A stretch of DNA of 64,000 nucleotides from Candidatus Nomurabacteria bacterium (lineage in GTDB: Bacteria; Patescibacteriota; Saccharimonadia; Saccharimonadales; JAGQNJ01): the NCBI GenBank assembly GCA_023898625.1, contig CP060231.1, forward strand, positions 148,258 to 212,257, read 5' to 3'. A program made the translations under genes and the position numbers. The notes under the pieces are model-generated. The model saw only the letters and a list, made by a program, of their open reading frames with translations. It was not told the DNA's origin and searched no databases. Positions 34,339-55,038 of the stretch are shown here, piece by piece. The first letter of the stretch is position 1. Every line of letters begins with the position of its first letter.

Positions 34339-35837
<1,499 letters not shown>

Positions 35838-36273: not shown

Positions 36274-38774
36274 TTATTCGGACTGCTTATCATCTTCAGG
36301 CTTATCAACCAAAGCTAGCGAGGCGACAGTGTCACCGTCATTTAAGCGCATAATGCGCACGCCCTGTGTAGCGCGACCAAGTTGAGGAATATCCTTTAGG
36401 CCCAAGCGTATGGTCTGTCCTTGAATCGATATGATAATCACCTCTTTCTCTCCATTTGTTAGAGACTTAACCCCCATTAGATCACCGGTCTTGGTATTTA
36501 CTACCGCCGAGCGAATCCCAACGCCACCTCTTGCGTGTGCAGTAAACTGATCAACTTTAGTACGCTTTCCATAACCCTGTTCGCTGATAACAAAAATACT
36601 ACTTCCCTCTTCAACAATATCCATGCCAATAACCTGATCATTAGTTCTTAATCTAATTCCTCTGACTCCCCTGGCTGTTCTTCCCATTGGACGAACATCT
36701 TTTTCGTCAAATCTAATAGCCTGCCCTTTAGAAGTAGATATTAAAACTTCGTTGCTACCGTTGGTCATCTTAACCCACTTAAGTTCATCTCCGTCATCCA
36801 GATTGATAGCAATAAGTCCGGTACTTCTGACATTCTTGTATTGCTCGAAAGGAGTCTTCTTAACAACACCCTTGATTGTACACATAAATAAATTACCAAC
36901 ATTATTTGTTTTCGAAATATTTATTACTGAGCTAACTTTTTCTTCGGGCTGAAGTTGTAACAGATTTACAATTGCTACGCCTTTAGCAGTAAGGCTAGCA
37001 GAAGGAACTTCATATGTTTTTATTCTAAACACTCTACCCTTATTTGTGAAGAATAGTAAGTAATCGTGTGTTGAGGCATTAACAACGTGTTCAATCACAT
37101 CTTCTTCTCGTGTTGTCATGCCGCGCCGACCTTTACCGCCACGCCCTTGCCTCTTGTATTCACCTACTTGGCTTCGTTTGATATAGTTCGCTGATGTTAG
37201 GGTTACTACAACTTGTTCATCAGGAACAAGATCTTCGTCACTCATTTTTCCTAATTCTTGGGGTACAATTTTTGTTCGTCTTACATCACCAAATTGTTTT
37301 TTGATTTCTTTAAGTTCGTCCTTAATAATCTTCAGGATTCTCTTTTCATCTGCCAAAATAGCCTCAAGTTCAGCAATTAATTTCAATAGTTCCGCTAACT
37401 CATCTTCGATTTTCTTTCTTTCCAAACCTGCTAATGTTCGAAGTTGCATAGCTAATATCGCCTTAGCTTGAATCTCGCTAAGATTAAATTTTGCCATTAG
37501 ATTTATTTGGGCTTCATCGGTAGTTTGACTAGCACGAATAATAGCTATGACTTCGTCTATATTATCAAGTGCGATTTTAAGTCCTTCTAATATGTGGGCG
37601 CGTTCTTTAGCCTTCTTTAGTTCAATCTCGGTTCTTCTACGAACAACTGATTGACGATGTTTGATATATTCACTCAATATATCTTGCAATCCCAAAACTC
37701 TTGGCTGTATTCCATCAATCAGGGCCAACATATTATAATGAAAACTACTCTGCAAAGGTGTAAGCTTATAAAGCTGATTCAAGATCTTCTTAGGATAAGC
37801 ATCTTTCTTGAGATCGATAACGAAATTCTGACCGTTCCTCTAGCGCTTTCATCACGAAGATCAGCAATACCAACTATCTTCTTCTCTTTAACCAGATCAG
37901 CAATCTTTTCTATTAAACTTGCCTTATTTGAAGGCGTATGGTATTTCAGAAATGACGATAGAATGCCTACCCTTCTTATTTTCGACAATATCAGCGAGCA
38001 GCACGTATAACAATTCCACCTCTTCCAGAAGAATATGCTGACCTGATGGATTCTTTTCCAAAACTATACCACCTGGGAAAGTCTGGACCCTTGACATAAT
38101 TCCAACAGATCATCTGTTGTGGATTCTGGGTGATCAATCAAGTGCGTAGTTGCATCAACTAATTCGCCAAGATTATGGGGTGGAATATTTGTTGCCATAC
38201 CAACTGCAATACCCATCTGACCATTAAGTAATAGGTTTGGTAACTTTGCCGGCAAAACTGTAGGCTCTTTTCTTGTTCCATCGTAGTTATCCCGAAAATC
38301 AACGGTTTCCTTTTCAATATCATCAAGCAAAGCTTCTGCAGACTTAGCCATCTTAGCCTCTGTATATCTATGAGCGGCTGGCGGATCACCATCCATAGAG
38401 CCAAAGTTACCCTGACCTTGTACTAATTCATATCGCATTGACCAATCTTGAGCCATACGTACCATAGAATCATAAATCGCACCGTCGCCATGTGGGTGAT
38501 ACTTACCCATAACTTCACCGACAATTTGAGCGCTCTTTACGGTCTTGCCACCCGAACGAATACCCATTCTGTCCATTACGTAAAGAATACGCCTATGTAC
38601 CGGTTTCAAGCCATCTCTAACATCAGGTAATGCCCTGGCAATGATCACGCTCATTGAGTACCTTAAGTAACTGTCTTCCATTACATTCTCAACAGTACGA
38701 TTTTCTATCATACGTGAATGATTCTGTTCTTGCACAACAGCTATTTCTTCTTGATTATCTATATCTTTATTCAT
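36274..38774 (-). pseudogene. gyrA: DNA gyrase subunit A with its reading frame broken by at least 4 frameshifts between ~37.82 and ~38.10 kb
   Basis: Three track ORFs are pieces of one GyrA: 38064..38774 (N-terminus with RRILY..., HPHGD and [10 protein letters not shown] catalytic Tyr), 37779..37988 (...[31 protein letters not shown]...) and 36274..37782 (C-terminal beta-pinwheel). My manual translation recovers [26 protein letters not shown] and [10 protein letters not shown] only by switching frames. Confidence 0.85.
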
Positions 38775-38777
38775 AAT

Positions 38778-40760
<1,983 letters not shown>

Positions 40761-40906: not shown

Positions 40907-42565
40907 ATGTTCAAAAAACTCCTTTCAAACTTGCCATTTAATCCAAGCTTAATCACAGAAGTATCCTTTTATGCAAAAAGATTAAATAGAGAGTCCAGTA
41001 TACGTAGGATTGGATTTGTATTTGTCGCGTTGACGCTAGTAGTTCAGGTTTTTGCTGTCATATCCCCCGCAGAAGCCAGTAATCAGTGTAGTAGTAATGA
41101 CATTATACGGTGTGGATTTAAATCAAAATCTGAGGCAGTACAAAGGTGTAACAATAACACTCAAGGATTTCGAACAATCGTTGAACACTACGGAATAAAT
41201 TGCACTACTCTGGCGAACTCTGGGGTTCAAACTATAAATTCTCGCGCCTATAATAATCAGCTTTATTCAATGGGTCGTAACCCTTATCAAAAACCCGGAG
41301 AATACCCAGTCAACATACAAGGAGCCGGAACATTTTACTTGAGACCACTATCGAGTTGGGGCAATACATCATATAAGATGCTCGTAACGAAAACCCCAGA
41401 TGGTATGCCATTCATGGTTATGTATGATTGTGGAAATATCGTTATACAAAATGGCTATAAACCACCCGCACCTAAACCTGAACCTCCAGCTGTATTAAAA
41501 GTTGCTAAAGTGAATGAACCTACCGGCAGCGTAAAGCCTGGCGATACAATTAAGTACACAATTGCCTTCTCTAACACTGGAGGCACAGCGGCATTCTTCT
41601 CAGTAAATGATAGATTAGATCCTGAGCTTGAGTATGTTAGCTCACAATATAATGGGTGGATATTTACCAATAACGGCCAAAGCCTTAAATGGTCAAATAA
41701 TACACCTCCATTCTATACTTTCGGAAATACCGATGTATTTGGTACACCTGGATTCATAACAATCACCGCCAAAGTAAGAGAAGGTACACCATCGGGTAAA
41801 AGTGTATGTAATACGGCCTGGCTAGAAGATGTAGATATTCCAACCAAACAAGTAAGAAAAACAAACGAATCAACAGTATGTAATAAAATTATTGTTGATT
41901 GCCCACCAAATACGATAGCTCAACCCAATGGCGATTGCAAAACTCCTCCACCTGTTAAAACAGAGGATAAAAAACCAATACTAGCAATTGAAAAGAAAGC
42001 TAAAAACGTAACAAAGAACATTGATGATGCAAACGGCACAACCGCATCTGCTGGTGATATTATCGAATACTCACTAACGACTAAAAATTATGGTGATGGC
42101 GAGTCAAAAGACACTATTCTTAAGCAAGAAGAATTGGCTGATGTGTTGGAATATGCAGATCTAGACTTCAACTCGCTTGACGGCGCTGTTTTTGATCAAG
42201 ACACTCAAACCTTAGCATGGAATAAGCCTATATCTATTAAGCCGGACCAATCAGTTACTAAGACTTTTAGGGTGAAAATAAAAAACCCTGTACCACAAAC
42301 CCCTACACCGTCAGGAAATCCAGGATCATTTGACTTATTGCTTACAAACGTCTACGGAAACACCATACAGATCAAACTCCCGGGTGGTGTACCAAAACAA
42401 ACCGAAAAAGTCATTACCCAGACACTACCTAATACTGGACCGGGCGAGGCACTAATTATTGGCGGGATATTGACTACTTTCGTAGGTTACTTCTTTACCC
42501 GAACACGACTTATGGCTAAAGAATTAGAATTAGTAAAACAAGAATACTCTTCAGGAGGCCAGTAG
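40907..42565 (+). CDS. Cell-surface protein with DUF11-type repeat domains and an LPXTG sortase anchor
   Basis: 552-aa ORF with N-terminal signal/TM. Two segments fit the conserved-repeat-domain pattern (GDTIKYTIAFSNTGG; GDIIEYSLTTKNYG). C-terminal LPNTG, a hydrophobic helix, then RTR. Confidence 0.75.
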   Translation: MFKKLLSNLPFNPSLITEVSFYAKRLNRESSIRRIGFVFVALTLVVQVFAVISPAEASNQCSSNDIIRCGFKSKSEAVQRCNNNTQGFRTIVEHYGINCTTLANSGVQTINSRAYNNQLYSMGRNPYQKPGEYPVNIQGAGTFYLRPLSSWGNTSYKMLVTKTPDGMPFMVMYDCGNIVIQNGYKPPAPKPEPPAVLKVAKVNEPTGSVKPGDTIKYTIAFSNTGGTAAFFSVNDRLDPELEYVSSQYNGWIFTNNGQSLKWSNNTPPFYTFGNTDVFGTPGFITITAKVREGTPSGKSVCNTAWLEDVDIPTKQVRKTNESTVCNKIIVDCPPNTIAQPNGDCKTPPPVKTEDKKPILAIEKKAKNVTKNIDDANGTTASAGDIIEYSLTTKNYGDGESKDTILKQEELADVLEYADLDFNSLDGAVFDQDTQTLAWNKPISIKPDQSVTKTFRVKIKNPVPQTPTPSGNPGSFDLLLTNVYGNTIQIKLPGGVPKQTEKVITQTLPNTGPGEALIIGGILTTFVGYFFTRTRLMAKELELVKQEYSSGGQ

Positions 42566-54807: not shown

Positions 54808-54823
54808 TTATCCATTTATAAAT

Positions 54824-54866
54824 CTTCATGGGATGAATGCGTGCTAGCCAACTGCGCCACACCCTG
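54824..54866 (-). pseudogene. Orphan tRNA 5' fragment (acceptor 5' strand + D-arm + short hairpin)
   Basis: Reverse complement CAGGGTGTGGCGCAGTTGGCTAGCACGCATTCATCCCATGAAG. The acceptor strand could pair with the TACCCTG at 54573-54579. No T-arm or 3' acceptor strand follows. Confidence 0.5.
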
Positions 54867-55038
54867 ATAAGACAAAAGTCAAGCTATCACCCTTGATTAA
54901 TCTGATTTATCTAGGTGGGTCTTCGCACACATAAACCACGATTTATATGATATAAAAATCCCTATCAGATGGTGTTAGATAATCATAGACGGATGATAAC
55001 CTGACAAACAATATTATACCCCTATACCAGCATCCTTT

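Follow-up and report, generated by a model that had tools for sequence, protein, structure and literature searches.

DNA gyrase subunit A is represented by the protein families TIGR01063 and NF004043, which combine the PF00521 domain with C-terminal repeats. The locus described here is like it in possessing the RYTE motif, in matching profile positions 310–797, and in having gyrB upstream. Mosaic gyrA and parC alleles, generated by homologous recombination between related species, occur in streptococci and Neisseria. If the patch described below, which resembles the gyrA of a sister species (genome G004), is a real allele, then this locus is similar to those, as it carries a short inter-lineage tract in gyrA and as the genome-wide identity to G004 is mosaic. 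It is unlike them in that the differences within the patch are almost all synonymous, with no sign of selection, and in that the tract is only putatively recombinant. The patch (codons ∼202–337) also lies outside the quinolone-resistance region.

A second comparison is with errors of metagenome assembly. The assembler Flye is described as collapsing related strains into consensus contigs, and indels as leading to frameshifts and missing marker genes (PMC8302730), and consensus indels in Nanopore data are described as a source of frameshift errors (PMC9262707). The indels reported below are similar to the errors of collapsed haplotypes in long-read metagenomes: they are local, they lie in a patch of coexisting haplotypes where the consensus carries alleles of both, and each of the haplotypes is itself intact. 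They differ from the usual long-read errors, which are scattered and found in homopolymers, since a homopolymer (the T run of 38060–38063) accounts for only one of the six places. Nor are broken frames unusually common in the remainder of this genome. The bubble also departs from typical strain variation, being far more divergent (∼18%) and far shorter (∼407 bp).

The gyrA locus

The window, a stretch of 64,000 nucleotides, corresponds to positions 148258–212257 of a genome assembled as one contig (G000:C1; 876,243 bp, estimated to be 97.77% complete). Its gyrA gene is in pieces, and the features of the locus, in window coordinates, are as follows.

36274..38774, minus strand: gyrA, in pieces, identified by PF00521 and the NCBIfam gyrA equivalogs
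38064..38774, minus strand: N-terminal open reading frame (ORF), 236 aa, in which the catalytic RYTE is found (NF004043 positions 2–208, 382 bits)
36274..37782, minus strand: C-terminal ORF, 502 aa, out of frame with the N-terminal ORF (NF004043 positions 310–797, 612 bits)
38778..40751, minus strand: gyrB, intact and directly upstream of gyrA (963 bits on NF004189, the cut-off of which is 740)
34340..35837, minus strand: 16S rRNA gene, near gyrA

The N-terminal ORF contains the catalytic tyrosine motif AAHRYTEAK, and PF00521 matches it over positions 1–176 with 292.9 bits. Both large pieces obtain their best or near-best scores on the NCBIfam gyrA equivalogs. For the C-terminal ORF the bit scores are 612 for NF004043, 574 for TIGR01063, 265 for parC_Gpos and 197 for parC_Gneg; the gyrA models outscore the parC models, and the C-terminal domain is of the gyrase type. 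This ORF also includes the sequence QGRGGKG, which resembles a GyrA box. These results bear out an earlier note on this DNA, made from the sequence only, which had described the N-terminal 236 aa with RYTE and the C-terminal ∼500 aa as intact, and the neighboring gyrB likewise.

Between the two large ORFs, ∼95 codons consist of short conserved pieces in alternating frames, again as the note had read them. Profile positions ∼209–309 are therefore legible in the window merely as fragments, and the pieces of the gene occupy three frames. The two large pieces, at 382 and 612 bits, each fall below the whole-protein cut-off of the NCBIfam gyrA model (902 bits), and no single frame in the window exceeds it, the frame being interrupted six times.

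PF00521 matches are confined to the gyrA locus in the 876-kb, 97.77%-complete contig, where no second gyrA or parC was found. This gyrA is thus the sole type IIA topoisomerase A-subunit gene of the genome. On the far side of gyrB, a 552-aa ORF (40907–42565, plus strand) is hydrophobic near its N terminus, while near its C terminus an LPNTG precedes a hydrophobic stretch and basic residues; it looks like a sortase-anchored surface protein.

gyrA in related genomes

A search for gyrA gave a match in 36 of 41 genomes, a tally that includes G000 itself and the unpublished G007, which enters no other result. A search for related loci with the N-terminal ORF returned 80 loci, of which the best has just 84% protein identity, so that none of them is from the same species. 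A single open gyrA frame of 841–881 codons (stop to stop) is present in 18 of 19 relatives' loci, and the remaining one, that of G004, is cut by a contig end. This sister-species gyrA (locus L007, on G004:C53) ends with its 3.3-kb contig at about window position 37268, in a stretch that is ∼91% identical between the two lineages. Difficulty in assembling this locus may thus extend beyond a single data set.

Six frame-changing indels

The indels were placed by alignment with five same-genus gyrA genes (four full-length, and that of G004, cut by the contig end) and with public contigs from runs labeled X1, X5, X6 and X13, described in the next section. The version of the gene found in X1 is hereafter referred to as native. 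Six frame-changing indels were identified, between positions 37822 and 38103.

38100..38103 (38102/38103), minus strand: indel 1, +1; G (the G004 allele, GAT) and A (the native allele, AAT) in tandem; 38102 is omitted by the public contigs
between 38076 and 38075, minus strand: indel 2, −2; inside the PDFPTGG codons, at a haplotype-variable site; contigs add TT behind 38075 in three of three covering runs
38059..38063 (38059/38060), minus strand: indel 3, −1; at the end of a T run, the lost base being a C/T haplotype difference; contigs add G or A behind 38059
37996..37998, minus strand: indel 4, +1; X1-like contigs omit 37998, the G004-like X6 contig omits 37996
37929..37930, minus strand: indel 5, +1; C (G004) and A (native) in tandem; X1-like contigs omit 37930, the G004-like X6 contig omits 37929
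37822..37823, minus strand: indel 6, +2 (an extra TC); two bases are omitted at 37822 in four of four runs, and by both X6 contigs

The net change is +2, and consequently the N- and C-terminal ORFs lie in different frames. The six indels span 282 bp, and none is found elsewhere in the 2.5-kb gene. The note had reported a cluster of at least four frameshifts; the cluster is confirmed, and the number is corrected to six by the alignment with gyrA of close relatives that the note had proposed, together with the contigs. It had also read PDFPRWYSF, in place of PDFPTGG, as a compensated double indel, which corresponds to the −2 of indel 2 plus the −1 of indel 3.

At two of the indels (38102/03 and 37929/30) the two alleles of a single-nucleotide polymorphism (SNP) stand in tandem, and indels 2 and 3 delete letters that are themselves variable between haplotypes. 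The extra TC of indel 6 is no simple tandem of two alleles. All six indels lie within two columns of a SNP site, but this proximity is not decisive (P = 0.087 for the random expectation), and it is weak as a statistic because variable sites are dense here (72 of 410 columns).

Public contigs carry an intact gyrA

At least half of the sampled gyrB–gyrA words occur in 17 public DNA runs, from wastewater or activated sludge, and in none of these does the fraction exceed 0.82; three RNA runs (X18–X20) contain 6–8% of the sampled words. The contigs of four runs from four studies (X1, X5, X6 and X13) were compared with gyrA; these are contigs and not raw reads, and contigs drop rare variants. X1, X5 and X6 cover all six indel places, while X13 covers only that at 37822 (its contigs do not cover 37954–38121). 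Every contig lying over any of the six places removes the indel there, with a depth for the change equal to the total depth, and no contig of the four runs carries the window's version of any of them.

Record 1 of X1 spans 36274–38774 in 2499 nt. When the changes listed for X1 are applied to the window, a single frame of 832 codons is obtained, in which PDFPTGG and the other conserved motifs are restored. This frame-restored public haplotype is like the gyrA of the relatives, and frame-changing indels elsewhere in gyrA were found in neither of the public haplotypes seen.

Run X6 holds both pure haplotypes as separate contigs, each of which removes the indels within its cover. The two omit different letters in doing so (37930 versus 37929, and 37998 versus 37996). 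The second X6 contig (record 29) ends in a loose stretch of 23 letters which, read by eye, is the reverse complement of G004 sequence. The native path of X6 is split into two contigs (records 27 and 28) exactly at 37764.

The contigs of X5, X6 and X13 all break at the same place in gyrA, where they end at 37429 and 37456. This shared break hints at a further branch or variant in natural populations. A 29-base pattern taken from the conserved flank had no exact match in the metagenome contigs, and no independent full haplotype sequences were obtained.

A patch of mixed ancestry

Substitutions relative to the contigs and to G004 delimit one further feature.

37765..38171, minus strand: patch of ∼407 bp, a site-by-site mixture of native (X1-like) and G004-like alleles, holding all six indels

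The window differs from the contigs by 42 substitutions. Of the 40 that are listed for X1, 39 lie inside 37765–38171. On either side the window follows X1 almost exactly, with 100% identity in 38172–38774 and 99.8% in 37270–37764. Within the patch, and among the listed substitutions, the window has the G004 allele at all 39 of its differences from X1. Considering instead the 70 patch sites at which X1 and G004 differ from one another, the window agrees with G004 at 39 and with the native haplotype at 31, and nowhere has a third letter. The order of these alleles forms 31 runs, against 35.6 ± 4.1 in shuffles, i.e., they are randomly interleaved. At the X1/G004-differing sites outside the patch (14 on one side and 19 on the other), the window is always X1-like. 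The limits of the patch are accordingly sharp: one falls between 38171 and 38184, the other between 37765 and 37762.

No private window substitution is present in the patch. This is the expectation for a mixture, while a real third lineage, 31 and 39 changes away from the two others, would have changes of its own. The identities in the patch, 92.3% between the window and G004 and 90.3% between the window and the public haplotype, both exceed that between the public haplotype and G004, which is 82.2%. Of the 40 listed differences, 35 are at codon position 3, indicating that these are real alleles and not noise, and that both haplotypes are under purifying selection.

Frame breaks elsewhere in the genome

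As a background for the gyrA cluster, an open-frame test between G000 and G004 identified 30 frame-changing indel clusters in which the frame is closed in G000 and open in G004, and 26 in which the reverse holds. The near-equal numbers in the two genomes argue for a local accident at gyrA, and not for scattered long-read noise. Clustering of indels at the nucleotide level against G004 had yielded 243 clusters, with noise from paired +1/−1 gaps in diverged stretches, and the open-frame test was used in its place.

Several multi-indel clusters besides gyrA were flagged by this test, including G000 330195–330437 and 444484–445436. One of them, G000 203080–203260, is in the window (54823–55003); it has three frame-changing indels relative to G004, contains no ORF of at least 50 aa, and is located between two minus-strand genes. 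These indels appear to be ordinary intergenic variation and not gene damage. Another multi-indel cluster, at 659845–659965, also appears to be outside genes.

In a tblastn census of ORFs, for which the relative G011 (also a single contig) was used, single-junction candidates numbered ∼5 in G000 and 3–4 in G011; it is only a rough background, as it missed gyrA itself, the two high-scoring pairs of which overlap in the query. Among the G000 candidates, a G011 ORF of ∼815 aa matches G000:C1 in adjacent frames (510676–511353 in frame 1 and 511367–513025 in frame 2), and the junction at ∼511353–511367 is a candidate for a single frameshift in this large protein, or for a split gene. Other candidates of the single-junction kind are near 738150, 796817 and 802195 and within a repeat-protein region (444.3–445.4 kb).

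A probable consensus of two intact haplotypes

The six gyrA frameshifts are very probably an artefact of assembly or consensus, arising from two blended intact haplotypes, and not a feature of a living cell. Intact haplotypes exist, and within the patch the window is a mixture of them. In the contigs of four runs, which are data independent of the assembly, intact versions of the gene are found and the assembly's version is found in none; the alleles of the patch all come from two haplotypes, finely interleaved and with no private changes. Among the explanations offered by the note, the one that the contigs and the patch support is a problem of local assembly or consensus, such as mixed strains could cause.

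For ∼407 bp of gyrA (codons ∼202–337), nature holds two intact versions that differ at ∼18% of sites, one native to the lineage and the other like that of the sister species G004. In the mechanism that I propose, reads of both versions would have been piled onto one backbone during assembly or polishing, and the consensus would have taken one allele or the other wherever the two differ. Beside such sites, at six places, both letters may have been kept, a letter dropped, or the alignment mis-gapped. The real organism would then possess a normal GyrA of 832 aa. The process was presumably the long-read consensus, or the polishing, of collapsed haplotypes; a long-read origin of the assembly is itself suggested by the single contig and the metagenome habitat. 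The confinement of the mixing to 407 bp is explained only if the second haplotype shares its flanks with the native one.

Origin of the second haplotype

This last point bears on the nature of the G004-like sequence. It may be a real allele, i.e., a ∼407-bp tract (codons ∼202–337) imported from the sister lineage and segregating beside the native allele in wastewater populations of a bacterium whose genome is small, as one case of very frequent short-tract exchange. I put this forward tentatively, as a proposal with a good but less than even claim to be correct. A recombinant allele would share flanks with the native one, so that reads of the two would pile onto a common backbone with differences confined to the patch, which would produce its sharp limits.

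G000 and G004 are 91.3% identical, with 518 kb of G000 aligned against the 713 kb of G004. The profile of identity along this alignment is strongly mosaic, with many blocks of several kb at 98–100% and other stretches at 80–86%. One of the 98–100% blocks starts ∼2 kb away, in gyrB, while the flanks in gyrA are at 83–86%. This mosaic profile suggests frequent recombination between the lineages, or else composite genome bins.

Alternatively, the artefact may be the same but the source of the G004-like letters may be a sister species in the same community, the reads of which were mis-recruited in polishing, and not a recombinant allele. At 91.3% identity over 518 kb, the two genomes are close enough for reads to cross-map. 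Consistent with this, the second X6 contig is about as far from the window as G004 is, with 22 differing sites in 37763–38073 against 23 for G004. In addition, record 29 has three unaligned letters just below 37763, and G004 differs from the window at 37762, which hints that this contig stays G004-like past the patch. However, the identity between native and G004 sequences is lower in the patch (82.2%) than in its flanks (86.2% and 83.4%), and cross-mapping should not favor the patch. Long reads of another species would also disturb the flanks, which are clean, and a branch with a shared flank would break the native path just as X6 has it, exactly at 37764. The observations point in both directions, and I regard mis-recruited reads as a rather unlikely source of the second haplotype.

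Is gyrA a pseudogene?

A different possibility is that the sequence is right for one real strain, in which gyrA was recently destroyed by six indels and is a true pseudogene. The deposited sequence does read as a broken gyrA and, since contigs drop rare variants, a rare strain with the exact sequence of the window could escape the comparison made here. Nonetheless, none of the six indels is backed by any contig of the four runs. The note had suggested that a pseudogene could be backed up by another copy, but the search for a second gyrA or parC returned the single PF00521 locus, with no replacement for it and with gyrB intact, which makes a real pseudogene implausible. Nor are there signs of decay: the patch has no private substitution, the third codon position accounts for 35 of the 40 differences, and six indels within 282 bp, with none in the remainder of a 2.5-kb gene, are unlike gene decay. 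The pattern of alleles is that of a random mix of two living haplotypes. A pseudogene is consequently very improbable.

Recoding, in which several programmed frameshifts or transcript editing would read through gyrA, is scarcely credible, as the sole point for it is that the conserved peptides are legible in alternating frames, while the DNA of natural populations is already in a single frame and makes it unnecessary, the six different shifts (+1, −2, −1, +1, +1, +2) have no common signal, and the gyrA frame is plainly open in 18 of the 19 relatives' loci, the other being cut by a contig end; nothing in the evidence demands the something stranger that the note had also allowed for.

Significance

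The probable blending of two haplotypes in this gyrA is a caution, as a complete-looking, single-contig genome of 97.8% completeness can have an essential gene broken by an artefact. An annotation pipeline would label such a gyrA as a pseudogene, or miss the marker. The locus also provides a signature that can be reused to recognize this kind of artefact without raw reads, namely indels confined to a patch, alleles that all come from two known haplotypes, and no private changes.

The biology that is left is modest, and consists of possible short-tract recombination between sister wastewater lineages. If the G004-like patch is indeed a real allele, then the assembly error marks a live recombination polymorphism between lineages that are ∼91% identical.
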